From the IMG/VR virus record IMGVR_UViG_3300019871_000003, positions 1 through 51,219 of that record: 51,219 bases of DNA, one strand, 5' to 3'. The stretch is from a virus (lineage: Duplodnaviria; Caudoviricetes). This document shows, piece after piece, positions 24,001-43,221 of the stretch. Within the stretch, counting starts at the first letter, position 1, and each line of letters opens with the position of its first letter. Under the pieces are notes generated by a model, which worked only from the letters and a program-made list of their open reading frames with translations, ran no database searches and had not been told where the DNA came from. A program made the position numbers and the translations under genes.

Positions 24001-25053
24001 ATGGCAAATTACGCCGCTTCGGTTTTGGCTAAAGGTCAGGCCAAGATTTCAGCAAAATTTAATGCCCCTGAATTAAGGGCGCAGATGCCTACCGTTATGG
24101 GTATGGCATTGAAAAATCAATCTATTTCAATACCAAATGCGCAGGATTTACGTGTATCGCCATTAAGGCCGGTTGACGTTAACTTCTTCACTAATATTGC
24201 TCCTGGCAATGCAACAGCAAAAACAGCACTACATACAGGTACTATAGCAGATTCATCTGTAATTAACCTTACTTATGTTTCCGTTGTTGAAACCTTTTCG
24301 CTTCCTGCAAAATTAGCAGATAATAATATATATGCTTATCAGGAGCTGTTCAACAACCAGTATGAGCAGAAATGGCGCAACCTGCGTACACGTCAGGATA
24401 ACGCAGCATTAGCATTCTTATTTGCCAACCGCTGCCAGTTATCAGCCGCAGTTGTAAATGCACGTGCCGCATCTGCAAACGCAGGCGCATGGTCTGACGC
24501 TAACCTGGCTTTGGAAATAGCGCAAGGTAACCAGAAGCTATTTATGCAGTATGCTAAATCATTCATGGCTGCTCAGTTTTACACTGGCCCATATGATATG
24601 CTTGCCGATCTTCAAATTGCGCGTGGTTTCGAGTTTGAAAAGAACCAGGGATCAAGCAACGCTAATAACTTCTCATTTCAGTTTGGTGATGCCTCTGTTT
24701 ATCAGACTCAAAGCATCATTGATCCTGCCTACACTCAGGGAGTATCATTGATTATGCCACAGGGTATATTTGCAGGTTTAAACTGGAACGAAGCATTGAA
24801 CCGTAGAGGATGGGGTAACGATCCTAATACTTCTTTGGGTATGGTTGGAACAACAGCGGATCCTTTGGGTTCGGGTGCAGTAGCGGATATTTCTATCTAC
24901 TCACAGCGTGCTGATACTTCAGCAAACGCAACTGGTGGTTCAACTCAGGATTTTGTTGATCAGTACGAATTGACTTTAACAATTGGATATGCTACTCCAC
25001 CGCTTTCATTAGTAGGTGACAGTGCAATATTCGAAATAGCACAATCAGTATAA
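24001..25053 (+). CDS. Major capsid protein
   Basis: 350 aa, Ala/Asn-rich, downstream of the scaffold; inferred from synteny. Confidence 0.75.
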   Translation: MANYAASVLAKGQAKISAKFNAPELRAQMPTVMGMALKNQSISIPNAQDLRVSPLRPVDVNFFTNIAPGNATAKTALHTGTIADSSVINLTYVSVVETFSLPAKLADNNIYAYQELFNNQYEQKWRNLRTRQDNAALAFLFANRCQLSAAVVNARAASANAGAWSDANLALEIAQGNQKLFMQYAKSFMAAQFYTGPYDMLADLQIARGFEFEKNQGSSNANNFSFQFGDASVYQTQSIIDPAYTQGVSLIMPQGIFAGLNWNEALNRRGWGNDPNTSLGMVGTTADPLGSGAVADISIYSQRADTSANATGGSTQDFVDQYELTLTIGYATPPLSLVGDSAIFEIAQSV

Positions 25054-25472
25054 TGAAAAGTTTAATTATAGCAATAGCATTGTGCATCGTTGGTACGGTA
25101 GCACATGCGCAGTTCAGCACAGGGGTAAAGATGCCTCTTGCCATTGGTGATACTATTTTGAATACTACCACAGTAAGCAAGGTTATAAACGCAACTGCGG
25201 GGTATCCGGGTTCTATCATTCAGGTTTTGGCAACATCGCAAACAGGAACGGTTGCCGGGGTAGCGAGATTATTCGGCTCTACCGATGGCGGCACCACATA
25301 CGACCGCATTAACCCGACTGACAGTGTTATTTTGAGCGCAACAACCTTACACTATAGCTTTAAAGTATTGGGGCCTTTGCCGCCAAAGATTAAGGTAGCC
25401 GTAGTTGGGTCAGGCACACAGCACACGCTTATAAAAGTTTGGTACGTATTACGAAAAAGCATCACTGAGTAA
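25053..25472 (+). CDS. Signal-peptide-bearing beta-rich protein (possible capsid decoration)
   Basis: MKSLIIAIALCIVGTVAHA/Q; L.GS.DG..Y motif; TAATG-coupled on both sides. Confidence 0.7.
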   Translation: MKSLIIAIALCIVGTVAHAQFSTGVKMPLAIGDTILNTTTVSKVINATAGYPGSIIQVLATSQTGTVAGVARLFGSTDGGTTYDRINPTDSVILSATTLHYSFKVLGPLPPKIKVAVVGSGTQHTLIKVWYVLRKSITE

Positions 25473-26632
25473 TGAACTATTCGAACGGGTTTGATATTGA
25501 CCAGGTATTGCCAGCTTTACAGCAGCGGTTAGGATGGATGCAGCCAACATTGGCAGGCAGTCCAACCTTAAGCCAGGATAATATTACGTCAAAATCAAGC
25601 CGGTTCTTTAATGATGGTTCATTTCATGCCCTTTGTACGATAGAAAATATAAAGGCTACTCAGGAAGACCCCGCAATAAGCGAAGAGGATTTTAATACCT
25701 ACCTGTTCAAATTGCAATCCGCATTAATTATGCGGTCGCTTAACGAGGTATTTCGCAAGCCTGAACTAATTGAACAGGTACTGCTATATACCCGGTATGG
25801 ATGGAATGATATTGCGGTAGCTAATGCCGGTCAGTGGATCGGGTGGATGATAAACGTTGGCAATGACCAGTCAATCAGCACACAGCTAAGCTTTGCCACT
25901 CTGTATTTCGATACTGATGTAGATTTCAATCTGTATTTATTTCAGGACGGCGTACGCGAGCCGCTAAAGACTATACCAGTGATAGTATCAGCCTTTGCCC
26001 ATACTGAGGTTGATTTAAACCTGGTTCTGCCATTTAAAACAGGTAGTAAATATTATCTGGTTTATGATCAGTCAGAATTGGGAGACGCAAAAGCCATTCG
26101 TGAACAGGTAGAAACCTATGCCATGACACGTTGTTTTGAAGCGATTATGTTTCAGGCAGCAGCCATAGATGACGGGACATTTTTCAACCATAATCAAAAG
26201 CAGTATCCTGGATTACCGCAGGGTATCAATTTGGAAGTGGTAACGTTCAGGGATCATACACAAAGAATACTTCGCAAGGCTAATCTATTTGATGAGGTGC
26301 AGGGGCTACAGATGGCGGTTATGGCTATTGAGGGAATAAATAACTCAAACAGGGCTAATTTAACGCAAAGAAATGCCGAGCAGCACTCACAGCAGATGTA
26401 TGCCGATTTAAATCAGGCATACGCTACTAAAGAAGTTCCTATTTCACCCGGGCTAAAGTCGCGTGTGTATTCAGAATTTAAACGATTGCGCGAAACATTC
26501 TTTCCTAAGGACGTACCAATATCATCTGATATGTCACAGAATTGCGGCGGGTTAGACGCTTACGAACAGCAATGGGCTAAAATAAACTGGAATACAATGA
26601 ATAATCCCGGTATGTTGGTAACTACCGAATAG
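25472..26632 (+). CDS. Putative head-tail connector/adaptor
   Basis: 386 aa; position after the capsid gene. Confidence 0.5.
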   Translation: MNYSNGFDIDQVLPALQQRLGWMQPTLAGSPTLSQDNITSKSSRFFNDGSFHALCTIENIKATQEDPAISEEDFNTYLFKLQSALIMRSLNEVFRKPELIEQVLLYTRYGWNDIAVANAGQWIGWMINVGNDQSISTQLSFATLYFDTDVDFNLYLFQDGVREPLKTIPVIVSAFAHTEVDLNLVLPFKTGSKYYLVYDQSELGDAKAIREQVETYAMTRCFEAIMFQAAAIDDGTFFNHNQKQYPGLPQGINLEVVTFRDHTQRILRKANLFDEVQGLQMAVMAIEGINNSNRANLTQRNAEQHSQQMYADLNQAYATKEVPISPGLKSRVYSEFKRLRETFFPKDVPISSDMSQNCGGLDAYEQQWAKINWNTMNNPGMLVTTE

Positions 26633-26634
26633 GT

Positions 26635-27186
26635 ATGAATATAGCAAAAGATAATGTTACTGGCGTTGACATACCGATAAAAAGATTACAGGACGTGTTA
26701 TATCCTGCACTTATAAAAAAGTGGAATCTAACAGATAGTTCTTTTAATATGTATAGCCGGGCTTACCGCAACCAAACTAAAGACGGGTATACGCCTGAAA
26801 TATATACTGGCAATAATGAATATAAAGAGGTTTACTTCGATGACTCATTATCGGCAAGTGCATTTTTTGGGCTAGGTGATGATACTAAGATAGTACAATC
26901 CAGTTCAACTACCGCACAAGTATACCTGATATTCATGATTGACCTGAATAAGATAAAGCCTGGTGATACCCGGAATGACGAAGAGGCAAGGAACGACGTA
27001 GAGCGGATATGCTTATCGGCAGGGTTCGGATTTACCATGACGGATATTATCATAGGCATCGACAAGGTGTTTAGCGAGTATTCAGGCTGGAAGCAGACAG
27101 ACGGTATTAAGTATCTGGATACACATCCGCTGCATTGCTTCAGGTTAAATTTTAAATTATTATACAGTGTTTACGCATGTAACTAA
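26635..27186 (+). CDS. Putative tail terminator/completion protein
   Basis: Directly before the tail tube gene; HP.HCFRLNF C-terminus. Confidence 0.55.
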   Translation: MNIAKDNVTGVDIPIKRLQDVLYPALIKKWNLTDSSFNMYSRAYRNQTKDGYTPEIYTGNNEYKEVYFDDSLSASAFFGLGDDTKIVQSSSTTAQVYLIFMIDLNKIKPGDTRNDEEARNDVERICLSAGFGFTMTDIIIGIDKVFSEYSGWKQTDGIKYLDTHPLHCFRLNFKLLYSVYACN

Positions 27187-27223
27187 CATGTATTTGTTTC
27201 AAAAAAAGTAAAAATTAAATAAA

Positions 27224-28183
27224 ATGGGAATTAAAAATGTACTAACGAGCTGCCTTGCAAGCTCTGGTAACACCGGATTCGGCCAATGCTTCACTGATAT
27301 AGGTATGCCAAGAGGTGTGCTGTTTGTACCGAAAGGCGCAGTATATAGCACTTCTGATATCCCTACTCTAAAAGCTACAATCCAAGCTGCTATTATGGCT
27401 GATTCAAAAAGTCAGCGTATATATCCCCTAAATAACATTATCAATATTACCGATAGCACTGAGGCCCCGGTTATCCAAACGTTCAATACCGGCGCTAAGT
27501 CAGTTGTTCGTAACGGGTTTTATGATCTTACGCTGCAATGGGAAAACGGTGGTTTCTGCGTGTTATATGCACTATTGAAATCACAAGGCCAAAATAGCCC
27601 GTTCCTGATCTATACCGATAAGGGGTTACTAATCGGTACTGATGCCGGTACTGCTGAAGAGCCTGAACAATTTAAGGGCATCAACCCGAACCTTGTTTAT
27701 GTTAACATGTTCAAATTCTCTGACGGATCAAAGGTGACCGAGTATAGCGTAACGCTGAACTTCGAGCCTACACAGATCAATCAGGGTATTGCATTTGTTG
27801 ACTTTAACCAGGATGGCGGTTTGGCTTATCTATCTGGATTGAGTGGGTTACAAAACGTAACGCTGTCACAGCTTGTTGCGCCAACATCGACCGTAGTTAA
27901 GATCGGTGCAACAACCGCTTGCGGATCGGTAAACCTTCACGATGTTTTCGCTTCTGAACTAGCTAAACCTGGAGCGTGGGTAGTTAAAAACGCTGCCACA
28001 GGTGGAACGATCACCGTTAGTGCGGTTGCCGATGATCCGACAGATGGCGGTTGGGCATTGACATTAACCGCGGCTACTGGTTTAACAGTAAATGTTTCAT
28101 TGGCCGGGCCTACTGAGTTAGCCGGATTAACTCCACCAGTTGCTGGGTACGAATCAAACTTATTATCACAAATCATACCGTAA
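27224..28183 (+). CDS. Major tail (tube) protein with C-terminal Ig-like extension
   Basis: 319 aa, synteny, A/T/V-rich C-terminal beta domain. Confidence 0.65.
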   Translation: MGIKNVLTSCLASSGNTGFGQCFTDIGMPRGVLFVPKGAVYSTSDIPTLKATIQAAIMADSKSQRIYPLNNIINITDSTEAPVIQTFNTGAKSVVRNGFYDLTLQWENGGFCVLYALLKSQGQNSPFLIYTDKGLLIGTDAGTAEEPEQFKGINPNLVYVNMFKFSDGSKVTEYSVTLNFEPTQINQGIAFVDFNQDGGLAYLSGLSGLQNVTLSQLVAPTSTVVKIGATTACGSVNLHDVFASELAKPGAWVVKNAATGGTITVSAVADDPTDGGWALTLTAATGLTVNVSLAGPTELAGLTPPVAGYESNLLSQIIP

Positions 28184-28350
28184 TGGTTGGGTTTAATAAA
28201 GAATACGCACAATGTGTATCTAAAGAACAGTGGATAAAAGAGCATTCGCACATTGAATGTGATTTATCTGCTGAGTACGATAAGATGGTGCCAAAGAAAA
28301 AGACCGAAGCCAAACCGAAAGAAGAGGCTGAGATTAAAGAGCAGGGTTAA
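28183..28350 (+). CDS. Small charged protein (55 aa), possible tail chaperone
   Basis: TAATG-coupled; MVGFNKEYAQCVSKEQWIKEH...KEQG. Confidence 0.55.
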   Translation: MVGFNKEYAQCVSKEQWIKEHSHIECDLSAEYDKMVPKKKTEAKPKEEAEIKEQG

Positions 28351-28381
28351 TAATTGTGTTCATGGTTTAGTTTGTTAGTTG

Positions 28382-28421: not shown

Positions 28422-28432
28422 AATATTATCAA

Positions 28433-28849
28433 ATGAGTACGATAGCTGATTTCAACAGAAGGATTCAGGCGGTAGAAATAGAGCAGGTGATCAGGGTTAG
28501 TATAGATGAAACCAGCGAAGACGCAGCGCAATATAATAGGGACGATCTGTCAGAGGGGCTACTAGCAACATCAAACCCAATTGTCCCTGGATATTCGCCG
28601 GCATACGCAAAGAAAAAGGGCTTTTTAACCCCTGATTTATATGTGACAGGTGATTTTTACCGGGGAATATTCGCAAAGGTAAAAGACAAGACAATAGAAT
28701 TTGACAGCACGGACCCCAAAGCTGGGGCATTAAAGGCAAAATATGGCAAATTTATTTACGGCATCACACAGGAGTCAAAGTCTGCGTATGCTAAGGGCTC
28801 GCTCAGACCAGTCCTTAACAAAAATCTCAGAACCGCCATTGGTATATAA
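28433..28849 (+). CDS. Putative neck/tail completion protein
   Basis: YSPAYAKKKG..PDLYVTGDFY motif; position. Confidence 0.6.
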   Translation: MSTIADFNRRIQAVEIEQVIRVSIDETSEDAAQYNRDDLSEGLLATSNPIVPGYSPAYAKKKGFLTPDLYVTGDFYRGIFAKVKDKTIEFDSTDPKAGALKAKYGKFIYGITQESKSAYAKGSLRPVLNKNLRTAIGI

Positions 28850-29396
28850 ATCTGTGTATGAGTTGCCATTATACAACTTTATACAGATTTCATTAACTGG
28901 TGACACTGAAAAATGGGGTGTAATGCCTGATATATGGAATACCATTACTGAACAGTATGCTGAGTTGTCCGGCGATAAATCAATGGGCAGGGCATTTGTG
29001 TTAACCAGGCAAATCACATACCTGAAAAACCGCCTAAACATTATACAATTGGTTGTAAATCAATTATCAGTAACCCGAAATGAAGAACTAATTAAAATAC
29101 TACAGAACGATCTTGGTTTTAGGCTAAAATTCGATGACCTGCAAGGTGATTTGGTGCGTGTTGTTTCACTGGCAAAGCCGGATTTTGTAAAGCTAAAGCA
29201 GGCTGAAGCCCAATATAATGATCTTAAAAAAGATGAAAAAGCGGCAACAGAAGCAGATTGGGATGACGAGTTAACGCATTTGGGGAAGTTCCAGGCGTTT
29301 AAGATCGATAAAAAACAAACCACAGTAAGCGAATATCTATCCATAAAAAAAGCATTCAAGGCACACGTTGATTATATGAACCGTAATGGGAAATGA
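28743..29396 (+). CDS. Pre-tape-measure protein (start uncertain, possibly TTG at 28839)
   Basis: Helical ORF before the tape measure gene; 107-nt overlap with the upstream gene if the ATG is used. Confidence 0.6.
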   Translation: MANLFTASHRSQSLRMLRARSDQSLTKISEPPLVYKSVYELPLYNFIQISLTGDTEKWGVMPDIWNTITEQYAELSGDKSMGRAFVLTRQITYLKNRLNIIQLVVNQLSVTRNEELIKILQNDLGFRLKFDDLQGDLVRVVSLAKPDFVKLKQAEAQYNDLKKDEKAATEADWDDELTHLGKFQAFKIDKKQTTVSEYLSIKKAFKAHVDYMNRNGK

Positions 29397-32300
29397 AGAA
29401 ATAATTGATTCCGTTGTTGACCCTATAGCCATTAAGCAGTTTAATGACTTAAAAGCTGTTGCCGCTTCTGCTACAGAACAAATGGTAATTGCTACTAAGG
29501 CAGCTATCGCTTTAAATAATGCTACTGGTGGATCGCAATCATTTACTGTATTTAAGAAAAACGCCGATGCTGCTAATGACGCTGTTAATACCATTATAGT
29601 CAATTCCAACAAAGCACAGCAAGCGCAGGATAAAGCCAGAGCATATAAAGCTGATATGGACGAAAAAGCGATGAATAAATATCTCGTTTTATTGTCCAAA
29701 CAAGAGGCTTACCGTCAGGCACAGGATGATAAAGAAATTGCAGCAGCGAAAGTAAAGGCTGATAAGCTTGCTCAGATACAAGACCAGGTCGCAGCTAAAC
29801 AATCTGCAATAGATGCTAGAAAAGCAAATGCTAAATTCCAGCCAATAGACCCATCTAATCCACATAACCTAAGTAACCCATCTATAACCGAAGAGCCATC
29901 TCAGCCAGTAGTAAGACATGAACCTATTATTACTGGCAATGAGAATATGAGCCTATCGGCCAAAAATGCGACCGTATCCATTAAGGAAGAAACAGAAGCT
30001 TTAACAGAACAACAGCGTGTTTTAAATAGCGTTGCAGGAACATTTGAGCAAAATGTATCCCTTCAACTAACGCTACAGTCAGAGCTTGCAGCCGTTCGCG
30101 CTGAAATGAAGCTAACAACAGGTGATGATGCAAAAAGCATAGCTACTAAAGAAAGGTTGACAGCCGAAGAAATACGGCTTAAATCTGCTATACAGGCAAA
30201 TGGAACTACATTAAGGCAACAGGCCAAGGATCAACTAAATGCCGATGGCAGTGCAACACAGCTTAACGCAAGGTTGACACAGCTACGGGCAGCCTATGAT
30301 TCACTATCTGCAGCAGAGCAAAAGAACGTGGCTACGGGCGGGGTATTGCTTACTGAAATTAAAGCGTTGGACGCTGAAACAAAAAAACTTGCGGCTGATC
30401 AGGGAGTACATAATAAAGAGGTTGGAAATTATGGCAATGCAATTACAAAATCGGTGGGAGGAGCTTTTTCAGTACTTAGGAAAATAGCATATGTACTACC
30501 AGGAGTTGGATTAGCTGGATTAATTGGGTTTGCTGTTGATCCTATAATAGAGTATATAAGTAAACTGGACATTGTTAAAAAACTTTTAGAAACACTTACT
30601 ACTGCTCAAAAGGATTATTCTATCGCATTTCAGGATACCGGATATCAAAAAGCGATTTCCAATATAGCTGAACTGACCGAAAATATAACACTTGCTAAGG
30701 AAGGGTTTTTGGATAAAACAAAGGTTTTAAGAGAGTATAACACTGCGCTTGGAGCTTCAATAGGCTATGCAGATGATTTAGACCAGGCAGAAAGGAATAT
30801 AATCAGGAATGGGAAAGATTATATTCAGATAACGCTATTAAAGGCTGCAGCTCAAATAGCCTTGAACGATTCGGCTAAAAAGCTAGCAGAATCTGCTCAG
30901 GTTGCTGCTAAGCCGACCAATACGTTTGTATCAACAAAGAGCGAATCTTTACAGGCATTAAATCTATTAGCACAGGGTCGATTTACTAAACAGGTTGCAG
31001 CTGCTCAAAAGGAAGACCAGGATAAACAGGTTAAAGACTTAAAAGATTCCGCTGATTCGCAATTGAAGATATTTGATGATTTCCAAAAAAGGGCTGCTGA
31101 AATTGCGAAGAAAAATGGGCAAATAGACTTTTTTGATGGCACACAGGATGCTAAAGGATCAAAAGGTAAAAAACCAGATGATCATGCCAATACAGATTTG
31201 TTGGAGTATTACAGACTGCAATTAGAACAGGTTAAAAAAACCTCAAAAATAGTATTAGATGACGAGACGCAAAGCTACGAAGCAAGAAAGGCAGCGTTAA
31301 ATATATACCTTAAGTCAAGTGCAGACTTAGTAAAAAACGCACAAGATATTGCCTTGACCGACACTAACCTACGCGGGCAGCAACGTAAAAATATTGTGTT
31401 GAAATTTAACAATGAATTACTCGATGTTCAGCGCGATGGAATAAATGAAACTGAAAAATTACAAAACTCAGTCAGTGCAAAACTAAAAAAGAATCTCGAG
31501 GATATTTTAAAAGCCAATGAAGATGCTGAAAAGTTAGCGATAGAGGGATTAACCCAAAGCAGAGATGAGCAGGTATCATTAATACAGGATGCAGCAGATA
31601 AAGAACTTGCTATAGTAGCTGATAAGTATGCTAAAGGTAAGATCAATGAAAAGCAATATCAGAAAGAAATAACAGCTATTCAGGATCAGGCAAATATTGA
31701 CCGGTTGGGGCAAGAGGCTTTTTATGCACAATCGGTATTGGCGATCAAGGAAGCTGCTGAAAATAACGCGATAAACCAGAATGGGCCAAAAACGCCGGAA
31801 CAGATAGCTACTATAAAAGCACATAGCGGAGTTAGTGAGGCTAAAACAGCCGTTTCAAAAGCAGGGAATGCCTTACAGAAGGCTTTAAATGAGCAGACGC
31901 AACATGAGTCAAAGCCAGATAAAGACATATCAGATTTTGAAAAAAAGGCAGCTGAAGAAGCTATACAAGCTATTGACTTGGTTACAAAGGCCCGCGATGC
32001 AGCATATGAGCGCAATATAGAGCAATTGCAAAAACAATCAGACATGGTTGATGAAAATGCTAAGAATGAAATAAGCGCAGTAAACAGCTCCATTCTGTCA
32101 AGTGCAGATAAGCAGCGCAAAATAAATATTATTGATGCTCAGGCGGCCCAGCAAAAAGAAGCTTTATTGGCACGCGAGAATCAGTTAAAAACTAAGCAGG
32201 CAAAGGCAGACAAGGAGGCTAATATAGCAAAGCTAACTATACAAGGCGCATTGGCAGTAGTTACCGCTTTGACTGGGGGCCCAATATTAGGCGAGATACT

Positions 32301-32682
32301 AGCAATAGGCGCGGCTGCATTGGTAGCGACTGAATTAGCGATTGCCATTGCAACCCCATTGCCTAAATATGCAAAAGGTACAGGTAATCACCCAGGCGGC
32401 ATGTTCATATGGGGTGAAAAAGGTACAGAAATGGCAATAGAGCCAAGCGGTAAAACTTATATGTCACCCGACCATGCGTCTTTAGGTATGGCACCGGCAG
32501 GGACAAAGATCATACCTAACCATATGATCAGGCCCGATAAGTTAAACTATTCAGGAGGCCAGCAAGTGCCATGGAAAGAAGTAATATCTGCTATAAACAA
32601 AAGTAAGCCGGAGCCACAAAAGAGGCCAAATGTTAAGGTCACTGTAAATAATGATTCATACTACCAAAAGTTTTATAGGTAA
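29386..32682 (+). CDS. Tail tape measure protein
   Basis: 1098 aa, Ala/Lys/Gln coiled-coil, two hydrophobic segments, LPKYAKGT..GEKGTE C-terminal motif. Confidence 0.9.
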   Translation: MGNEEIIDSVVDPIAIKQFNDLKAVAASATEQMVIATKAAIALNNATGGSQSFTVFKKNADAANDAVNTIIVNSNKAQQAQDKARAYKADMDEKAMNKYLVLLSKQEAYRQAQDDKEIAAAKVKADKLAQIQDQVAAKQSAIDARKANAKFQPIDPSNPHNLSNPSITEEPSQPVVRHEPIITGNENMSLSAKNATVSIKEETEALTEQQRVLNSVAGTFEQNVSLQLTLQSELAAVRAEMKLTTGDDAKSIATKERLTAEEIRLKSAIQANGTTLRQQAKDQLNADGSATQLNARLTQLRAAYDSLSAAEQKNVATGGVLLTEIKALDAETKKLAADQGVHNKEVGNYGNAITKSVGGAFSVLRKIAYVLPGVGLAGLIGFAVDPIIEYISKLDIVKKLLETLTTAQKDYSIAFQDTGYQKAISNIAELTENITLAKEGFLDKTKVLREYNTALGASIGYADDLDQAERNIIRNGKDYIQITLLKAAAQIALNDSAKKLAESAQVAAKPTNTFVSTKSESLQALNLLAQGRFTKQVAAAQKEDQDKQVKDLKDSADSQLKIFDDFQKRAAEIAKKNGQIDFFDGTQDAKGSKGKKPDDHANTDLLEYYRLQLEQVKKTSKIVLDDETQSYEARKAALNIYLKSSADLVKNAQDIALTDTNLRGQQRKNIVLKFNNELLDVQRDGINETEKLQNSVSAKLKKNLEDILKANEDAEKLAIEGLTQSRDEQVSLIQDAADKELAIVADKYAKGKINEKQYQKEITAIQDQANIDRLGQEAFYAQSVLAIKEAAENNAINQNGPKTPEQIATIKAHSGVSEAKTAVSKAGNALQKALNEQTQHESKPDKDISDFEKKAAEEAIQAIDLVTKARDAAYERNIEQLQKQSDMVDENAKNEISAVNSSILSSADKQRKINIIDAQAAQQKEALLARENQLKTKQAKADKEANIAKLTIQGALAVVTALTGGPILGEILAIGAAALVATELAIAIATPLPKYAKGTGNHPGGMFIWGEKGTEMAIEPSGKTYMSPDHASLGMAPAGTKIIPNHMIRPDKLNYSGGQQVPWKEVISAINKSKPEPQKRPNVKVTVNNDSYYQKFYR

Positions 32683-35127: not shown

Positions 35128-35144
35128 TAAGTTTACAATACAAA

Positions 35145-35309: not shown

Positions 35310-37025
35310 ATGGCAACAACTGTATTCCAGATAACACCATATTCATCATTTAATCTGATGCGTGACGGCTTTACCATCGACGACAGGTATCACACTGTGC
35401 CGTTCGCTGATAGGCAAGACCCGACTAATTACTTTCAGAAGATTCAAAAAGATGATAATAATTTCAGGGTGCAAGTATTATCTGATTTTACGCCAACACT
35501 AAGGCTTTATGACTGCAGCGATGTATTTATTAAGAATGTGCCATTTGTCAGCCGTGTAATTTTAAATGCTTCATTCCTGGTATATGATGCTGTGCCGGAC
35601 TTTTCAGATGTTAGCGAGGGTGCTTATTATCTTAAGCTTACCTATACTGATGAAAGCGATACCGTGCAAACATATAGGACATTTATGCTTAACGTGGCAG
35701 AAGATTGGCCCGAAACTTTGCTTTTAGAATACACGAATACTTTTAATGATAAAGGAGTACTATTTGTTAATGATGATAATTCATTAATGGTATTTGGCTT
35801 CAGGATAGAATCAAGCTTTGACGAGTACCAGCCACTAAGCGCCGACATAGATTATATCGATCAGGTATATGATACTGAAGTACTGAACAACACGCCTTAT
35901 GATAATGAAAAGCTTTATATAGGAACTGACCAGGTAACAGGCGGGGCGCCTGATTGGGCTATCAAAAAGATGAACCTGATTTTTACCCTGAATAAGGTAG
36001 CTATTGATAATCAGTTTTACAACCGGGTTGAGGGCAGCAAGTTCACACCACAAAGGCCGGATCATGGGGTATTGATAGACGGACTAAATGTAAGGCCGAC
36101 CTATTGGAGCATCGATATTATCCCTAATCAGAATTTCAATTTACAGCAATTTCAAACGGGCGTAATCCCAACAGGAGATATAATTGTGATAAAAAAAGCC
36201 AAAATATACGATAGCATCGCGGCAGATTTTACGGCTACGGGGCTTTTTACAGTTAATTCAAACCTGATCAGGCTTGCTGTAACCAACAAAAACTTTGATG
36301 TTTTTACAATAAAGCTGGGCACAACTGCCGGAGATGATGATATAGCAAACATTGAAATAGTAAACAATCCCGAAACCGGCACGCCTGATTTAACAGGATC
36401 ATATGATATAGGGCATACTTTTACTGTGCCTACAGATGTATTTGTTTCAGGGATAGACGGTACAAACTTAAAGATCACATTCGATTGGAACCAATATGAT
36501 GCACCTGCAATAACACCTGTAACACCCGGTGGTGGAGTGCCAAAAGGAACAGTTACAGTGTATGAAGAGCCTACGCCAGGTGATTTTGTTTTGGATTGGG
36601 ATATAGGCACAGGGTTAGGTTTACGTGCGTGGGTTGGATGGTGTTTGTCAGGCACAAACGGGACAAAAGACAGGGCAGGTAAATATTCACAGGGTTGGAA
36701 TAAAGATGAAGTAGGACCTTCAACGCGTGGAACTGAAACTGGTAACGCAAATAACCTTGCAACTATTGAGCGGTCTAATTTGCCAGCAGTTGGAATTCAC
36801 TTATTTGATGATGCTGTAAATAACACAGCCGGGGATACGATCACGCCAACATCTAATGTTGCGCGAAATAGATCGGCGGGTGGCTCAAGTAATTACGACA
36901 TGCTTAAAGGTCGTCCCGGAGTTGAGCCAGGTATGGGGTTGTCAGAAAAATTAGGTGACGGCGATCCTATTTCAATAGAGCCAGATTCATTGATTGATGT
37001 ATGGGTAGTTAAAATTACAGACTAA
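35310..37025 (+). CDS. Minor tail protein with C-terminal collar-like domain
   Basis: VPKGTV...GW.L..GTNGT.D..GK collar-like pattern. Confidence 0.7.
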   Translation: MATTVFQITPYSSFNLMRDGFTIDDRYHTVPFADRQDPTNYFQKIQKDDNNFRVQVLSDFTPTLRLYDCSDVFIKNVPFVSRVILNASFLVYDAVPDFSDVSEGAYYLKLTYTDESDTVQTYRTFMLNVAEDWPETLLLEYTNTFNDKGVLFVNDDNSLMVFGFRIESSFDEYQPLSADIDYIDQVYDTEVLNNTPYDNEKLYIGTDQVTGGAPDWAIKKMNLIFTLNKVAIDNQFYNRVEGSKFTPQRPDHGVLIDGLNVRPTYWSIDIIPNQNFNLQQFQTGVIPTGDIIVIKKAKIYDSIAADFTATGLFTVNSNLIRLAVTNKNFDVFTIKLGTTAGDDDIANIEIVNNPETGTPDLTGSYDIGHTFTVPTDVFVSGIDGTNLKITFDWNQYDAPAITPVTPGGGVPKGTVTVYEEPTPGDFVLDWDIGTGLGLRAWVGWCLSGTNGTKDRAGKYSQGWNKDEVGPSTRGTETGNANNLATIERSNLPAVGIHLFDDAVNNTAGDTITPTSNVARNRSAGGSSNYDMLKGRPGVEPGMGLSEKLGDGDPISIEPDSLIDVWVVKITD

Positions 37026-37483
37026 TGGCTTGGAAAGGAATATTAACCGACGGTATAAAAGCCAAACTTAGTGGTGGAATGATTGGTCATGAAAGCATAT
37101 CTACCTATGTGCCATTTTTGGGGCTGTTGGATTTTACATCCGATGACGATATTCCCAATTTAAGGGCAGTTAAATCATTGGTATTTACCCCACCATCTGA
37201 AACAATAAAGTTTGCTGCCGGCAGTGCGTTATCCGCAGGTATAATAGACATGACACTAGGTACGCGTGATTTATTCGGCCTGTATCCAACGATAATAAGA
37301 GAAATTAATAAAGTAGTTGACGGGGTAACGGATGATACCATTTTGCAGCCAGCTGACGATATAACCTATTACAAACAGTATACAGATAACACGTACGCAG
37401 TGCTTAACACAATTCAAATAAACGGGCATGATGACGGCTCAGGAAATTTTGCAGAAGATACATATATAACATTAAAGGCATAA
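37025..37483 (+). CDS. Hypothetical tail-module protein
   Basis: 152 aa, TAATG-coupled on both sides. Confidence 0.6.
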   Translation: MAWKGILTDGIKAKLSGGMIGHESISTYVPFLGLLDFTSDDDIPNLRAVKSLVFTPPSETIKFAAGSALSAGIIDMTLGTRDLFGLYPTIIREINKVVDGVTDDTILQPADDITYYKQYTDNTYAVLNTIQINGHDDGSGNFAEDTYITLKA

Positions 37484-38994
37484 TGAGAAAACTACTTATT
37501 ATAATATTATTATTCGTATCAGGAGCTTCATTTGCTCAGGTATCAACTGTTACACTACAGGTTAAAGGCGGCAATGGAGTTAATTACATGCCTATCACAT
37601 GGACGGGTAAAACAAGCCCCGACACGTTAGGAAACTTAAAGTATAATCGTGCAAATTACTTGCAACTTAGAAACTTCATAGATAGCCTGAACGCTCATGC
37701 AAGTTTCTTTTCAAATGACTTTATAGATCCTGGAACATCTACACATCCTATAAGGTTATCAACTGATACCATAGGAACAGGGCCTTTCATAGTAAGAGGT
37801 ACTACTGGTTTAAGGAAAGATACTAATCATTATGTAACTACAGGTACAACTTTAAAGAACATCTATAATGTTAACGGAAGCCTGACATCCAACCGGACAG
37901 TCAATCTAAATGGCTTTACTTTAGGATTTTCCGGCAATATTAATGTAAATGGCGCTACGTTAGGACGGGGCGCTGGTGCGGATACTTCAAGCTTTGGGTA
38001 TAATGCTTTTAGTGCTTCAGGTTATCCGGCAGGAAAATTTAATGTTTATTTTGGGGGTAGGGTATTGCAATCAAATACTACCGGAACACAAAATACAGGA
38101 ATTGGTATCAGTGCTTTGGCAGCTAATACAACAGGAGGATTAAATGTAGCGGTAGGAACATCTGCATTAACCTCTAATATTGGTGGAAGCAGCAATGTCG
38201 CTATAGGTGTAGGTTCATTAACTTCAAATACTACCGGGACATTTAATGTAGCGGTTGGGAGAAATGCTTTGAATGCAGCCACAACAGCAAGTTTCAATAA
38301 TGCATTTGGTTTTAATGCATTGGAACTAACTACAACAGGCATTCGAAATAATGCATTTGGTTCAAGTAGTCTCTTTAAAAATACAACTGGTCATAATAAC
38401 ACAGGCTTTGGGGACTCTACACTATTGAGTGTAGTTACAGGAATTAACAATACGGCACTTGGCAGTAGAGCCGGGGCGACGACTACAGGGAGTGGGAATC
38501 TTTTCTTAGGATACAATGCTGGACTTAATGAAACAGGAAGTAATAAATTATATATCGCAAATAGCCCTACTTCCACTCCGCTAATAAAGGGCGATTTCTC
38601 TGCTGAAAACCTACAAATATTCGGAACCCTACAATCATGGACGCCGACCGGAACACCTGGAGCAGATAGCTTGGTAGTAAAACATGCAGGTTTATTTTAC
38701 GCCATCGCTCCTACCACTGTAATCATATCGGCCCAAACCGTTGTGAATGGAAGCACAAGTGGTACGGCTACTTACTCAGAACCCTTTCAGGATAGCGGCT
38801 ATAAAAAAGTAATAGTTTATTGCAGTTCTTTATCAGGAACTGCAACCTATACTTTCCCTGTAGCATTCACTAACACACCGGTTGTTATTACAACAAGTGG
38901 CCCAGCGTCTAGTGTAGTTACTTCATTGAGTACCACCGCAATTACAATTACAGGTGCCACTACAACAGGCAATGTTATAATAGAAGGATTTTAA
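37483..38994 (+). CDS. Signal-peptide-bearing fibre/adhesin with N.A.G..AL..NTTG repeats
   Basis: MRKLLIIILLFVSGASFA/Q; ~14-aa YadA-head-like repeats; FPVAFTNTPVV fibre-tip-like C-terminus. Confidence 0.75.
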   Translation: MRKLLIIILLFVSGASFAQVSTVTLQVKGGNGVNYMPITWTGKTSPDTLGNLKYNRANYLQLRNFIDSLNAHASFFSNDFIDPGTSTHPIRLSTDTIGTGPFIVRGTTGLRKDTNHYVTTGTTLKNIYNVNGSLTSNRTVNLNGFTLGFSGNINVNGATLGRGAGADTSSFGYNAFSASGYPAGKFNVYFGGRVLQSNTTGTQNTGIGISALAANTTGGLNVAVGTSALTSNIGGSSNVAIGVGSLTSNTTGTFNVAVGRNALNAATTASFNNAFGFNALELTTTGIRNNAFGSSSLFKNTTGHNNTGFGDSTLLSVVTGINNTALGSRAGATTTGSGNLFLGYNAGLNETGSNKLYIANSPTSTPLIKGDFSAENLQIFGTLQSWTPTGTPGADSLVVKHAGLFYAIAPTTVIISAQTVVNGSTSGTATYSEPFQDSGYKKVIVYCSSLSGTATYTFPVAFTNTPVVITTSGPASSVVTSLSTTAITITGATTTGNVIIEGF

Positions 38995-38996
38995 GA

Positions 38997-39116
38997 TGAG
39001 ACTACCACTGTTTATCTATCCAGTCCCGATCATAATCGCCCTTACGTGGTTTGGATTCAAACATGCTGTTAAGGATACGCTTGATGAATTTTATAAATTT
39101 CTTAAGCATAAGTAAG
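38997..39116 (+). CDS. Small single-TM protein (39 aa)
   Basis: MRLPLFIYPVPIIIALTWFGFKHAVKDTLDEFYKFLKHK. Confidence 0.4.
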
Positions 39117-39147
39117 GTTTAATTGGTAACGAAATTAAAAAATAAAA

Positions 39148-40674
39148 ATGAAAAAGCTAATCTTATTACTACTATTATCAGTTAGTGCATTACTGGCTAA
39201 GGCTCAGTTCTGCGGGCCGTATACCTTTATCAATCACTTGTCCTATTCGGGGATGAGCAACTTAACGATCAGTTTTGATTCGTTACAGTACATCTCTTTA
39301 ACATCCTGTCATAACATTCACATTACCCATTGCAAGGTAGCAGGCAATGTTTTTGGCATAGGGATCGAACTTAACTCATGTACTGGCATTACGATTGATT
39401 CAACCGAGATAACTAATTGCGGACAGGGAATTATAATGACGAATGTATCATCTTATAATATTTCGCATAATTATTTTTTAAATATCATAGGCACTCCGGG
39501 CGACACATGGCATCCGTTTCAAGCGAGAAGTTGCACCGGTTCCCCTCAGATATTTAATTTTAATAAGATCGAAGAAATTGGTGTGCCGTTTTCGCACGAT
39601 CAGATTAGTTTCTTTCAATGCCATGGTTCATCCGGGCACCTTATTCAATGCTATGGTAACACTATAAGAGGCGGTCAAACGCAAATGAATGGTACTGGCC
39701 CGGGTGGCAGGGTTGCTATTCCTGGTAAAGCCCTGAATGGTGCTTGTGGTATAGGAGTAGATATAGGAACAACTTACATTTTAGTAAGGCAAAACAAAGG
39801 AATTAATACAGGTTATGCCGGTATTCAAATTATAGGCTCAGGCATTGATCATGTTACAGTAGATTCAAACTCCTTTTATAGTTCAGCTACTAATATATCA
39901 TTGATAGGTCTGTCTTACCAGGTAAGCGGCGCAACGGATGTTTTCATAGGGCATAACTATTTGAATTGGCTCACTTTTAACAACACAAGGCAAAACCTAT
40001 TTTCATCTGTAACCGCACCTCCGGGATGGACAACTAATACTGCAAATACCGTTGCAGATCCATTAGCCACATCGACCATGATCCCTAACCCTCAGGTCGC
40101 ATCATGCTTAGTGCCGCCGATAATTAATATATCCGGATCGCCTTTTGCTTATGTTTATGGTTCAACTATTGCAAATATCACTCCGGTTAATACTGGCGGG
40201 GCTGCGACCTCTTATTCACTAATTGGTACGTTGCCATCAGGTTTAAGCTTCAATACTGCCACGGGCGTTATTTCAGGAACAAACACAGGTATTAAATCAA
40301 TCACAAGTTACCAGGTCATAGCTATTAATGGATCAGGCCGCGATACTGCGACTATTTCAATAACGGTCAACAAGGCTGTTTTAACAATAGTTCCAAACCT
40401 TGCCTTTAAATTTCAAGGTCAGGTTAATCCAACTTTTACAGCCAGTTACGCAGATTTTCAATTAAGTGATAGTGTAGGATCATTAACCACGCCTGCAACA
40501 GTATCAACCACTGCCACGACAGTATCGGCAGCCGGGACTTATCGATTAACAGCATCAGGAGCAGCTGCTACAAATTACACGTTTAATTACGTTTCGGCAC
40601 CGTTTAGTTTTGTGATCCTCCCAAATACTATAGGCGTAGTAATACATACACCAGTAATAGTTTTAACACACTAA
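39148..40674 (+). CDS. Signal-peptide-bearing beta-helix + putative Ig (He_PIG-like) + MBG-like protein
   Basis: MKKLILLLLLSVSALLAKA/Q; parallel beta-helix repeats; LPSGLSFNTATGVISGT; VNKAVLTI...GQ.NP.FTASY...AGTY. Confidence 0.75.
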   Translation: MKKLILLLLLSVSALLAKAQFCGPYTFINHLSYSGMSNLTISFDSLQYISLTSCHNIHITHCKVAGNVFGIGIELNSCTGITIDSTEITNCGQGIIMTNVSSYNISHNYFLNIIGTPGDTWHPFQARSCTGSPQIFNFNKIEEIGVPFSHDQISFFQCHGSSGHLIQCYGNTIRGGQTQMNGTGPGGRVAIPGKALNGACGIGVDIGTTYILVRQNKGINTGYAGIQIIGSGIDHVTVDSNSFYSSATNISLIGLSYQVSGATDVFIGHNYLNWLTFNNTRQNLFSSVTAPPGWTTNTANTVADPLATSTMIPNPQVASCLVPPIINISGSPFAYVYGSTIANITPVNTGGAATSYSLIGTLPSGLSFNTATGVISGTNTGIKSITSYQVIAINGSGRDTATISITVNKAVLTIVPNLAFKFQGQVNPTFTASYADFQLSDSVGSLTTPATVSTTATTVSAAGTYRLTASGAAATNYTFNYVSAPFSFVILPNTIGVVIHTPVIVLTH

Positions 40675-40702
40675 TTTTTTTATTATATATTTTATAAATG
40701 TC

Positions 40703-41056
40703 ATGACGTTTAAGGTTGGTAAAAATGATGTTCACATAGGATTTTGGGAAGCATTCTCAATTATTTCAAGCGTAGTAATTTGCACATGGGGGGTTAGCGA
40801 ATGGAATAATTTCCGTAACAACCGGGAAGAGAAAAGGATCGAAGAGCAACACGTAATGTATCAAAAGATTAACTGGATAGCCAAACAGGATACTTTGCTA
40901 ATAGGATATAAAAATCGCCAAGACTCAATATTAACGGTAATAACGCGTAAACAGGCAGTGTTTGAGAACGTGTTTATAAAAGGGTCAAAAGAAAAATTGC
41001 AATATGTTACTGAGCAATATGATCAGAATGGCCTTCATTTTAATGTTGTAAAATAA
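40703..41056 (+). CDS. Single-TM protein of the lysis region
   Basis: One N-terminal hydrophobic helix followed by a helical soluble domain. Confidence 0.55.
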   Translation: MTFKVGKNDVHIGFWEAFSIISSVVICTWGVSEWNNFRNNREEKRIEEQHVMYQKINWIAKQDTLLIGYKNRQDSILTVITRKQAVFENVFIKGSKEKLQYVTEQYDQNGLHFNVVK

Positions 41057-41067
41057 ATCGAATAAAA

Positions 41068-41109
41068 GTAAACTACAGTTGACAGAGTGTACACTTTTAT
41101 TTACCTTTA
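41068..41109 (+). promoter_or_regulatory. Late-module palindrome GTAAACTACAGTTGAC plus TACCTTTA -7-like box
   Basis: 24/26 nt identical to the site at 18113. Confidence 0.6.
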
Positions 41110-41131
41110 ATTATTGAAATCTTAAGTTATT

Positions 41132-41434
41132 ATGTCTGATCAAACAGCCGAACCCGGCAAAGAGCCAAATACAGTTACAGTAAAGGACGCGCAGGTAACA
41201 GCGCCAACAAAAACAACTTTCGGGCTTGGCTCATTTAGCTTGCCTACGCCTGAAAGTGCGCGACAGGGATTTAAACTATTCCTTTTGTTCAATAGTATCA
41301 TAGTGCTTACTGTAAATGGATTTCCGCAGATCCCATTAGATGCAAGGAACTTAATTTTGCAGTTCTCTACTGTTGCAAATTTGGTAGCTAATAAGATTGA
41401 AGATTTTTACGGGCTATCAACTGACCTAAAATAA
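41132..41434 (+). CDS. Putative holin
   Basis: 100 aa with hydrophobic helices, immediately upstream of the endolysin. Confidence 0.55.
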   Translation: MSDQTAEPGKEPNTVTVKDAQVTAPTKTTFGLGSFSLPTPESARQGFKLFLLFNSIIVLTVNGFPQIPLDARNLILQFSTVANLVANKIEDFYGLSTDLK

Positions 41435-41444
41435 ACAAACCGTA

Positions 41445-41912
41445 ATGGATATAAGATCAGAAACGGCACTACTTACTTTGCACCCAAAATTCAGGCCATC
41501 AGCAATCGCGGCGTGGGCAGAAGCACAAGCGGCCATGCCATCTAATGTAAAAATAGTTGTTGTGCAGGGATTGAGATCGTTTTCGGAATCAGAAGCCTTG
41601 TATGCACAGGGTAGAACCAAGCCGGGACCTATTGTCACCAAAGCAACAGCAGGGCAAAGTTATCACAATTATGGGCTCGCTTTTGATTTTGCAATGATAA
41701 CGGACGGAAAGGATGATGATCAGGTAGGGCCGAATTGGTTAAAGGTTGTTTCAATAATGCAATTACACGGTATGTTTTGGGGCGGCAACTTCCCTGAAGG
41801 GTTTCATGATAACCCACATTTTGAAAATAGATATGGGCTTAACTGGCGTTTAATGCTCGCCAAACACAATGCAAAAGATTTTATTCCTGGAACTACTTAT
41901 ATAAACATATAG
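41445..41912 (+). CDS. Endolysin, M15 family L-Ala-D-Glu peptidase-like
   Basis: GLRS...LYAQGRT.PG..VT.A..GQSYHNYGLAFD...WGG...DNPHFE. Confidence 0.92.
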   Translation: MDIRSETALLTLHPKFRPSAIAAWAEAQAAMPSNVKIVVVQGLRSFSESEALYAQGRTKPGPIVTKATAGQSYHNYGLAFDFAMITDGKDDDQVGPNWLKVVSIMQLHGMFWGGNFPEGFHDNPHFENRYGLNWRLMLAKHNAKDFIPGTTYINI

Positions 41913-41921
41913 CAGAGTAAC

Positions 41922-42104
41922 ATGCAACCCGGCGATAAATGCACCGTCAATAAACATTACGGCCATGCCAATACTGAAAAGGTAATGCGCATTGTAAGGA
42001 TTGAACATGCCCCGGGTTACAGATCTGGAACTAAAGTAACAGTTGACGGCCTTGATCTTGCTGTTGATAGTGGATTGATAGTAATTATTCAAACGGGCAA
42101 ATAG
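41922..42104 (+). CDS. Small hypothetical protein (SH3/KOW-like)
   Basis: MQPGDKCTV... 60 aa, beta-rich. Confidence 0.45.
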   Translation: MQPGDKCTVNKHYGHANTEKVMRIVRIEHAPGYRSGTKVTVDGLDLAVDSGLIVIIQTGK

Positions 42105-42147
42105 AGTGTAACTAATTTTTAAAAACAAATATTAAATCAAACAATTT

Positions 42148-42642
42148 ATGAGCAACAACCCATTTCAAGACTTAGGAAGCTTCCTATCGAATTTATTCAA
42201 AAAAATAGTTTCTTGGATAACCGCAGCAGAGCACGTTTTAGGTCCAGTTATTACAATAGCTGAGACACTGTTAAACGGGCTAAAATCTTTCGACAATTCA
42301 GTGGTAGGGCAAACAGTAGAAGGGCTTATAGAGCAATATATTCCTGCATCTACCGGACTGATTAACGCGTTTAAATTACAGCTACCTGTTTGGCTTATTG
42401 ATTTAGGCTGGATACAAAATGAAGCGACTAAAACACTAGATCAGCAATGGCAGGATGCATTGGCTTACCTGGCTACTATTAAAGACCCAAATGTTAAAGC
42501 GACACAACTTGCAGCCCTTAAATCATTATTCCTGCATTTCTTTGGAACTAATTCCGGGACTGTAGTTAATGGCAAGCCGTTGACCATTCAGCAAATGATC
42601 ACGTTATCGCAACCAACACACGACCCGAATATAGTGGCTTAA
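42148..42642 (+). CDS. Amphipathic helical protein of the lysis region
   Basis: N-terminal amphipathic helix FLSNLFKKIVSWI. Confidence 0.6.
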   Translation: MSNNPFQDLGSFLSNLFKKIVSWITAAEHVLGPVITIAETLLNGLKSFDNSVVGQTVEGLIEQYIPASTGLINAFKLQLPVWLIDLGWIQNEATKTLDQQWQDALAYLATIKDPNVKATQLAALKSLFLHFFGTNSGTVVNGKPLTIQQMITLSQPTHDPNIVA

Positions 42643-42844
42643 TATTTAAAAGCCCGGCCTGAAAAAAACCGAATGCCTGATCGCTACGGAGAAATAAGTA
42701 AGAAAGGGCTTTTAACTTCAACGCAATGGAAGATAACGGATGGTTTATCATAGGAATAGTACTCATACGAATGGGAGTACTTGCTGTCCTTTGGGATGAT
42801 ATCTATCCGCTTATTAAGTTTATTAAACGACTAACTAGACGAAA

Positions 42845-43036
42845 ATGACAATAGGCCAACTTCGAGAACATCTAAATAATAGTCCTGCACCTGATGGTTT
42901 TATTATTAAGGTTGAGATAGCGGATGAGTTGTTTGACATTGATAAGATTATCTCTACAGTATACATGCAATTGCCAATCGGTGATGATGCTTTTGAAGTT
43001 ATATCGCTTAAAAACGAAAACTCAATTAAACTATGA
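42845..43036 (+). CDS. Hypothetical protein
   Basis: MTIGQLREHL..P 63 aa. Confidence 0.5.
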   Translation: MTIGQLREHLNNSPAPDGFIIKVEIADELFDIDKIISTVYMQLPIGDDAFEVISLKNENSIKL

Positions 43037-43221
43037 AAAGATTATTACCCATATACGTTTTACTGTTATTAGTATGCGTATCTATTAGTTTTACCGTAAA
43101 AGCTCAGGCAAAAAAAGACACCACAAAAGTAAAAGACACTTACAATTACTTTGTTACTATCCCGGCAGAAGATTATATGAAAATGTCGGGGGCGATCAAT
43201 GATTGGCTTCCCTTCTGTTAA
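43033..43221 (+). CDS. Short signal-peptide protein (possibly truncated)
   Basis: MKRLLPIYVLLLLVCVSISFTVKA/QAKKDTTK. Confidence 0.5.
   Translation: MKRLLPIYVLLLLVCVSISFTVKAQAKKDTTKVKDTYNYFVTIPAEDYMKMSGAINDWLPFC

Follow-up and report, generated by a model that had tools for sequence, protein, structure and literature searches.

The DNA considered here is the virus record IMGVR_UViG_3300019871_000003 (Duplodnaviria; Caudoviricetes). The window, the whole stretch of 51,219 bp that was analysed, is that entire record and not a fragment of a bacterial genome. Four genes of its late operon, named here by their first nucleotide (25053, 37483, 39148 and 43033), encode proteins that begin with a predicted signal peptide followed by Gln. 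These genes, and those that they overlap in the structural part of the operon, are listed below. A slash marks the predicted cleavage site, and Pan5 is a related phage described later.

24001-25053 (+): major capsid protein, 350 residues; matches phrog_7231 'virion structural protein' (E 8.3e-27); its stop codon overlaps the start of 25053 (TAATG).
25053-25472 (+): signal and jelly-roll protein, 139 residues; signal at residues 1-19 (AHA/Q), predicted jelly roll of ~120 residues, motif G-D33-T34-I35-x-N.
25472-26632 (+): adaptor-like gene, 386 residues; overlaps the stop codon of 25053; 37% identity to Pan5_08 'adaptor protein'; matches phrog_8189, of unknown function.
37025-37483 (+): tail-module gene, 152 residues, without a signal; its stop codon overlaps the start of 37483; no Pfam or PHROG match.
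37483-38994 (+): fibre-like protein, 503 residues; signal at residues 1-18 (SFA/Q), N-terminal module to residue ~124, repeats rich in Asn, Gly and Thr, C-terminal tip module.
39148-40674 (+): predicted exported protein, 508 residues; signal at residues 1-19 (AKA/Q), right-handed beta-helix, He_PIG immunoglobulin (Ig) domain, MBG_2 domain; 10 cysteines.
43033-43221 (+): small predicted exported protein, 62 residues; signal at residues 1-24 (VKA/Q), Lys-rich mature peptide of ~38 residues ending in Cys; last gene of the late operon.

The original prediction had singled out these four open reading frames (ORFs) as carrying a signal with Gln at position +1, and their coordinates and N-termini are as it gave them. 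The N-termini read MKSLIIAIALCIVGTVAHA/QFS for 25053-25472, MRKLLIIILLFVSGASFA/QVS for 37483-38994, MKKLILLLLLSVSALLAKA/QFC for 39148-40674 and MKRLLPIYVLLLLVCVSISFTVKA/QAK for 43033-43221. The coupling by TAATG that it had described is real. It is found at 25051-25055, between the capsid gene and 25053, at 25472, between 25053 and the next gene, and at 37481-37485, between the preceding tail gene and 37483. In addition, 43033 overlaps its upstream ORF by ATGA. An ORF for a 39-residue membrane protein, and then an AT-rich spacer of 33 nucleotides (nt), precede 39148.

All ORFs of at least 30 residues in the six frames, 401 in number, were passed through a signal filter. To pass, an ORF needed a basic residue close to its start, a hydrophobic window of nine residues and small residues at positions -3 and -1, with nothing acidic ahead of the cleavage site. 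Thirteen ORFs were positive, and Gln at +1 was confined to 25053, 37483, 39148 and 43033. The mean hydropathy of the h-region was 3.3-4.0 across the four signals, and the n-h-c layout was complete. A fifth convincing signal in the window, and the last, belongs to a lipoprotein (45944-46324, minus strand; VFG/C).

None of the four proteins has a lipobox, all of the sites being of the A/Q type. Likewise, no C-terminal sorting domain of the type IX secretion system (T9SS) was found in any of them with Pfam (E ≤ 0.01) or NCBIfam (E ≤ 0.05). We know of no route to the Bacteroidota cell surface that dispenses with both. Hence, the simplest outcome would be accumulation in the periplasm and release by lysis. 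Remodelling of the surface of the infected cell, the alternative offered in the original prediction, is weakened by the same observations. Substrates of Bacteroidetes signal peptidase I commonly carry Gln at +1, on which glutaminyl cyclase acts (the Q-rule; PMC5837995, PMC10653852).

The gene behind the capsid gene belongs to a large family. The 25053 protein has no family in Pfam, PHROGs or NCBIfam, and its nearest Atlas clusters are 91-100% viral and without a Pfam family. A word-indexed search returned 11 family proteins, in which A-x-A/Q is kept while the signal sequence varies. A profile search of 1.84 billion representatives returned 293 family clusters at E ≤ 0.001, 60 of them at E ≤ 1e-10. 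Among the best 150 of these 293 members, 125 were positive with the signal filter, 113 of those had Gln at +1, and no member lacking a signal was seen. The 25 negatives mostly had internal-Met or 5'-truncated starts, or a single acidic residue, and small-x-small/Q was still visible by eye. Across nine full-length sequences, mean pairwise identity falls from 66% in the mature part to 37% in the columns of the signal. The signal columns diverge yet stay signal-like, as expected if export function, and not sequence, is conserved. The original prediction had looked to conservation of the signals in related phages. They are indeed kept, in relatives both of 25053 and of 39148 (20 of the 24 closest inspected), and so are not a product of chance. 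The observation holds, and its reach is greater than first described. Dual starts giving isoforms without a signal were also considered and rejected; Met27 of 25053 is present in 15 of 141 family members, and Met36 of 37483 is Leu in P0053, a related protein.

The capsid protein is 28-83% identical to the capsid genes of relatives, including Pan5_06, annotated 'major capsid protein'. Eleven relatives were examined: six viral loci, two loci from metagenome-assembled genomes (MAGs), Pan5, 'Rhodobacteraceae phage LS06-2018-MD05' and Polaribacter phage P12002L. A signal-bearing gene lies directly 3' of the capsid gene in 10 of the 11. These genes encode proteins of 136-187 residues and start 3-57 nt past the capsid gene. 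All six viral loci, with a capsid identity of 53-83%, have one. A locus scan with 25053 alone found no related loci; with an alignment of the 25053 family (A1), it found one viral locus and none in genome contigs. In two relatives (L006, 8124-9539; L007, 11692-13077) the homologue of the 386-residue adaptor-like protein is ~80 residues longer at its N-terminus. By reading, the extension resembles a bacterial Ig-like domain of the Big_2 type. This is odd for a head-tail adaptor and hints that the adaptor-like protein is exposed at the surface.

Motifs were counted in a MAFFT alignment of 141 members of the 25053 family. The best-conserved motif after the cleavage site comprises D33 (131 of 141), T or S at position 34 (136 of 141) and L, I, V or A at position 35 (136 of 141). 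In 129 of the 141 members the aligned position has D-[ST]-[AILVMT] in full, with D-T-[LIV] nearly invariant. The sequence D-(S/T)-(A/I/L/V/M/T) is the sequon of general O-glycosylation in Bacteroidota (PMC12871550). This system acts on non-cytoplasmic proteins once the glycan has been flipped to the periplasm (PMC12871550; also PMC8550257). Most such sequons are modified nearly fully, and engineered sites are modified too (PMC12871550, 2025 review). The four signal proteins together contain 12 sequons, where shuffling of their own residues leads one to expect 3.09 (Poisson P ~9e-5); five are in 37483, where 1.25 are expected. Conversely, 20 other late proteins contain 24 sequons against 22.3 expected. 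One other outlier was found, the membrane-segment protein encoded by 40703-41056 (2 sequons against 0.14 expected, P 0.006), which suggests that the C-terminal part of that protein faces the periplasm. Taken together, the sequons and the Q-rule make the four proteins resemble ordinary periplasm-exposed proteins of Bacteroidota. Thus, chance or an unused signal is very unlikely.

An AlphaFold2 model of 25053, made with 110 family sequences, has a mean predicted local distance difference test score (pLDDT) of 93.0 and a predicted template modelling score (pTM) of 0.79. It supersedes an earlier model made with 11 sequences (pLDDT 65.8). The protein is predicted to form a signal helix followed by a jelly roll of eight to nine strands. 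A Foldseek search of the PDB returned generic jelly rolls (best E 2.4e-4), namely GOLD domains, Cry domain III, picornavirus capsid proteins and carbohydrate-binding modules; no phage cement protein was among the 50 matches listed. When the model was used in a VIA-align search, cement proteins did appear, together with PBSX XepA, and the match was no better than that to GOLD domains or carbohydrate-binding modules. The BFVD matches were many uncharacterised small phage proteins (best E 4.9e-8). For one such neighbour, a 115-residue protein of Pseudomonas phage PPpW-3, the gene could not be placed and the lead was dropped. A predicted complex of the capsid protein with mature 25053 (residues 20-139) scored 0.18 against a mark of 0.32, which gives no answer and weighs neither way. 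The modelled fold is compatible with a cement or decoration protein and equally compatible with a free lectin-like protein.

The repeats of 37483 match phrog_4636 'tail spike' (E 7.7e-21) and phrog_6002 (E 9.1e-25), under tail spike and 'virion structural protein' names. Residues 13-124, signal included, are 84% identical to P0053, elsewhere a different protein. The last ~90 residues are much closer to a second protein, P0035, than the overall identity of 34%. Judged by sequence, 37483 is a mosaic fibre with a conserved N-module and exchangeable distal parts. This combination is typical of the evolution of fibres that dock on particles. Relatives of the N-module were found neither in viral contigs nor in metagenome contigs, and the Atlas scores (≤0.81) are at noise level. 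With phmmer, nothing was found for 37483 or 39148 among solved structures at E ≤ 0.01. Of the best 120 repeat homologues of 37483, 59 have a signal, followed by Gln at +1 in 53 of them; the others have N-termini like those of ordinary phage fibres. Some of the cellular homologues carry the T9SS domain PF18962. A Bacteroidota MAG (G007, e.g. L027-L031) has this type of repeat in 23 matches, within very long cellular ORFs of up to 1251 residues. Hence, the repeat is common to cellular proteins and phage fibres.

For 39148, Pfam returned MBG_2 (E 5e-15) and He_PIG (E 1e-9). The Beta_helix match is weak (E 9e-4; 19.3 bits, under the cut-off of 25.9), and close homologues are recorded with PF13229. 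Among the 24 closest homologues inspected, 17 have Gln at +1, and the mature start QFCGPY is conserved. In these 24 proteins the number of cysteines ranges from 0 to 14 and is mostly 4-13, and the majority of the proteins are encoded on contigs of phage size. Around and beyond 39148 lie the following genes.

38996-39115 (+): small ORF, 39 residues, one hydrophobic segment; between the fibre gene and 39148.
40703-41056 (+): membrane-segment protein, 117 residues; membrane segment at the N-terminus; opens the likely lysis cassette; no Pfam match.
41445-41912 (+): endolysin-like peptidase, 155 residues, without a signal; Peptidase_M15_4 (E 6.1e-11), VanY (E 1.7e-7); 42% identical to Pan5_25.

A further ORF of ~40 residues with one hydrophobic segment (42726-42848, plus strand) is tightly packed ahead of the last two late genes. 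Together with 38996-39115, it may encode a small membrane protein of the lysis or assembly machinery. The last gene, 43033, has no credible family match in Pfam, PHROG or NCBIfam. Its product was inspected for the features of a spanin; the 62 residues contain neither a lipobox nor a second hydrophobic segment, and have the VKA/Q site instead.

Pan5 (Pseudanabaena phage, ON968456) is an isolated, CsCl-purified siphophage for which virion mass-spectrometry data exist (PMC9837993). Its homologue of 25053, Pan5_07, is 33% identical and bears the depositor's label 'cement protein'; the capsid proteins are 28-29% identical. Pan5 and the phage LS06-2018-MD05 (OP947161) match the present phage in the order of their head and tail genes. 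Complete relatives have one to three large proteins with a signal and Gln between the tail-tip and lysis genes, as does Pan5 (Pan5_18 and Pan5_19). The counterpart of 39148 is Pan5_19, a polysaccharide lyase that has a signal and a PKD domain. In Pan5 (L020, 5945-6346 and 18042-22086) and in LS06-2018-MD05 (L025, 5038-5451) we observed signals of Bacteroidota style, Gln at +1 and a D-T-L sequon; the sites in the two phages are TQA/Q, ALS/Q, TTA/Q and ANA/Q. The Pan5 host culture was reported with co-existing bacteria (PMC9837993), and the assignment of these two phages to cyanobacterial and Rhodobacteraceae hosts may deserve a second look. Another relative (L010, 6352-7152; G001, 46352-47152) encodes a 266-residue protein with a signal and Gln (AMG/Q). 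It weakly matches DNA/RNA non-specific endonucleases (E 0.0016, below the cut-off) and is possibly an exported nuclease.

In its remaining genes this is an ordinary tailed phage: it has terminase, portal, a capsid of the HK97-type lineage and a tape measure. The genes concerned, and two of the lysogeny module, are these.

18633-19979: large terminase.
20014-21786: portal; no Pfam match, named from 33% identity to Pan5_02 (annotated portal).
29386-32682: probable tape measure, 1098 residues; homologue of the 1065-residue Pan5_14.
44097-45389 (-): tyrosine integrase, from family search.
46345-47112 (-): S24 repressor, from family search.

These genes point to a temperate siphovirus-like phage, and we read the window as its complete genome. 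The record is broken within a gene of tandem nine-residue units (GAATASGYQ and variants) that extends past both ends (50688-51218 and 2-622, plus strand). Hence, the genome is probably circular or permuted, the record being cut inside the repeat; no exact terminal repeat was found at the record ends. In genome collections, the nearest capsid genes come from MAGs: a Mucilaginibacter MAG has one with 72% identity, carried by a contig of 50.9 kb, and a Bacteroidota MAG has one with 58%. Two soil-metagenome DNA sequencing runs match the phage DNA and are possibly its source; the runs listed were of DNA only, with no RNA run among them. From the capsid genes and the soil runs we infer that the host is a soil bacterium of the Bacteroidota, probably near Mucilaginibacter. 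The MAG contig is of phage size, and the link to Mucilaginibacter may come from binning alone.

Several other genes of this genome may be mentioned. An overlapping pair of ORFs (28433-28849 and 28743-29396, plus strand) lies directly upstream of the tape measure gene, the usual site of tail assembly chaperones made by programmed frameshift. A gene for a RadC-like JAB-domain protein (43624-44100, plus strand; E 2.4e-33; TTG start) lies just beyond the late operon and is convergent with the integrase gene. The lipoprotein gene 45944-46324 (minus strand; 126 residues, MKKLLLIAFTLTVFG/C), with no NCBIfam match, lies in the lysogeny module between the integrase region and the S24 repressor. Two relatives (G002 and G004) likewise have lipoprotein-like genes. 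The lipoprotein is a candidate envelope or exclusion protein expressed in the lysogen.

We consider the following core of events very probable. The four genes would be transcribed together with the virion genes. The host Sec machinery would export the products and signal peptidase I would cut them, after which host glutaminyl cyclase would convert the newly exposed Gln to pyroglutamate. In the periplasm, the D-(S/T)-(hydrophobic) sites would probably be O-glycosylated, and the disulphides of 39148 would form there. The proteins would then stay in this compartment until lysis, in which first the inner membrane and then the cell is opened by the lysis proteins. The claim of export made in the original prediction is strongly supported by the canonical signals, the Gln at +1 kept in large families, the enrichment of sequons and the cysteine-rich nature of 39148.

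Our proposal for the final step is more tentative, its chance falling a little short of even. Once a holin has merged the two compartments, cytoplasm and periplasm would mix. The 25053 jelly-roll glycoprotein would bind finished capsids as an accessory decoration, and the 37483 fibre would dock on the tail through its conserved N-module. In model phages, accessory decoration proteins and fibres attach in vitro to particles that are already complete. Translational coupling would lead to 25053 being made in the amounts of the capsid protein, and 43033 would be a small periplasmic protein at the lysis end of the operon. We favour attachment of 25053 and 37483 because gene order is kept across distant capsids, because translation is coupled at the level of the capsid protein, and because the family is restricted to viruses. 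For 25053 itself, the points in favour are confined to its position beside the capsid gene, its generic jelly roll and the depositor's 'cement protein' label on the Pan5 homologue. The fullest version, in which pyroglutamate-capped, O-glycosylated decoration proteins and some fibres snap onto finished particles at lysis, would give a virion coated with host glycans with no need for a phage glycosyltransferase; we think this rather unlikely.

Nearly as probable as attachment is that all four proteins are exported and never join the particle, acting as free periplasmic or lysis-released factors. The 25053 protein would then be a lectin-like glycoprotein, present in abundance, that covers debris or the glycans of the envelope, for instance against re-adsorption of progeny, or that aids lysis. 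Similarly, 37483 would be a soluble copy of a receptor-binding protein, 39148 a free depolymerase and 43033 a lysis accessory. Every feature that supports export fits this explanation too, and a number of observations weigh against attachment. To our knowledge, there is no tailed-phage virion protein with a cleaved Sec signal, and we found none in literature outside the subscription journals; this lack of precedent sets the prior against attachment. In Polaribacter phage P12002L, of the same distant capsid lineage, the capsid gene runs straight into the adaptor-like gene, which indicates that a 25053-type gene is dispensable in Polaribacter phages. When the 25053 family profile was compared with solved sequences, there were weak CBM32-like matches (E 0.0025 and 0.027) that fit a free lectin equally. 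The fold neighbours include carbohydrate-binding modules and the lysis-cassette protein PBSX XepA (PMC6834076), and Q-rule genes in prophages of Porphyromonas gingivalis have been read as envelope modifiers (PMC10367356). A homologue of 37483 is found in none of five related phage records, and about half of its repeat homologues are signal-bearing proteins of Bacteroidota, some on megabase bacterial contigs. The signal filter, moreover, is home-made and is not SignalP. For 39148, the role of fibre or decoration given to it in the original prediction is doubtful. The helix match begins at residue 49, so that the ~30 residues between it and the cleavage site are too few for a particle-binding domain, and an N-terminal particle-binding module is absent. 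Both 39148 and Pan5_19 are enzyme-like, and 39148 is more likely a free polysaccharide-degrading or -binding enzyme released by lysis. For this protein, the free-factor explanation is probably right. That explanation offers no evident reason why the signal-bearing gene should stay locked to the 3' side of the capsid gene, in many cases with an overlap, while capsid identity falls from 83% to 28%; genes for lysis or exclusion usually belong to the lysis or early modules. The 25053 family is also almost purely viral, and the conserved N-module of 37483 with its swapped distal parts is the pattern of a protein that docks on particles.

Far less probable is that the four are lysogenic-conversion (moron) genes, expressed in the lysogen from promoters of their own and altering the envelope or excluding phages, like lambda lom and bor. 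It is true that the phage is temperate, with integrase, S24 repressor and a lipoprotein gene in the lysogeny module. The short AT-rich spacer ahead of 39148, and the occurrence of the 37483 repeat region in many cellular proteins of Bacteroidota, also point this way. Conversely, 25053 overlaps its neighbours on both sides and 37483 on one. The -7 motif TAnnTTTG is absent from the 150 nt upstream of each of the four genes and is present 24 nt ahead of 18171, at the head of the packaging genes. TAnnTTTG is the consensus promoter motif of Bacteroidota, from which phage late promoters may differ, and this limits the weight of its absence. Generic promoter-like sites (77 against 63.3 ± 8.0 in shuffled sequence) and terminator-like sites (21 against 17.0 ± 4.0) are both at background. 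Furthermore, the 25053 family is viral and not host-derived, and Pan5 has the same layout without an integrase being listed among the 71 features of its record. The least probable explanation of all is that the signals are not used for export, and serve as a membrane tether or as a pro-peptide cut by a phage protease, with assembly in the cytoplasm. This would keep the textbook rule of cytoplasmic assembly, and capsid proteins with predicted 'signal peptides' have been regarded as probable substrates of a prohead protease (PMC10367356). Selection for Gln at +1 (113 of 125) makes sense only if signal peptidase I exposes the residue to a periplasmic cyclase. The enrichment of sequons, limited to the signal proteins and one membrane protein, argues against unused signals as well, as do the cysteine-rich 39148 family and the full n-h-c layout.

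At this locus, then, the gene that stays locked to the capsid gene is a member of a large family restricted to viruses, but its product is built like a periplasmic glycoprotein of the host. The accepted view places the whole assembly of tailed phage particles in the cytoplasm, and annotators routinely take a signal peptide to mean that a gene is non-structural. Were the proteins to join the particle, tailed phages would have a new route of assembly, one that borrows the periplasmic chemistry of the host (pyroglutamate, O-glycans and disulphides). The consequences would reach from the stability of virions and their recognition by hosts and predators to the way in which virion proteomes are searched. 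Were they not to join it, an exported lectin-like protein made in the stoichiometry of the capsid would be an unrecognised late function in phages of Bacteroidota. Pan5, isolated and purified and with mass-spectrometry data, makes the question directly testable either way. In literature outside the subscription journals we found no account of a signal-bearing family locked to the capsid gene, of export before tailed-phage assembly or of a glycosylation sequon conserved among late proteins of phages.

Cement proteins described to date are not known to carry a signal peptide, and they attach to capsids within the cytoplasm. The 25053 protein has no detectable sequence relation to the jelly-roll cement proteins of Bordetella phage BPP-1 (PDB 3j4u, chain H) and Helicobacter phage KHP40 (PDB 7dou), and unlike them its family carries a signal, Gln at +1 and a glycosylation sequon throughout. 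Filamentous and membrane-containing phages have virion proteins that pass through the export or insertion machinery of the host, and their particles assemble at or with a membrane; the present phage is, in contrast, of the ordinary tailed type. Exported proteins that are encoded among or beside structural genes and act in the envelope include Lom and Bor of lambda, Cor of phi80, N15 and T1, and Llp of T5. All of these belong to the outer-membrane proteins or the lipoproteins and so have a route to the outer membrane. Their expression is early or takes place in the lysogen, and they are not known to be conserved beside the capsid gene. Conversely, the four proteins described here have no lipobox, barrel-like or T9SS feature. 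PBSX XepA and SPbeta YomS (PDB 6i56, 6i5o; PMC6834076) come from Gram-positive hosts, are encoded in the lysis cassette and form a pentameric dumb-bell, whereas 25053 lies beside the capsid gene. The XepA alignment covers residues 4-139 of the 25053 model, signal helix included, and no sequence relation was found.

A further likeness, by description, is to prophages of P. gingivalis. Five Q-rule genes of these prophages, of unknown function, have been suggested to modify the outer membrane of the host (Matrishin et al. 2023, PMC10367356). The two systems are alike in encoding, on a phage, signal peptidase I substrates with Gln at +1 that are adapted to Bacteroidota secretion. Linkage to the capsid gene, a conserved sequon in a large family and the architecture of fibre and enzyme are features of the present phage as compared with the available account of those prophages (PMC10367356). 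The finding varies known themes, those of exported phage proteins and of capsid accessory proteins, with a realistic chance of a new assembly route.

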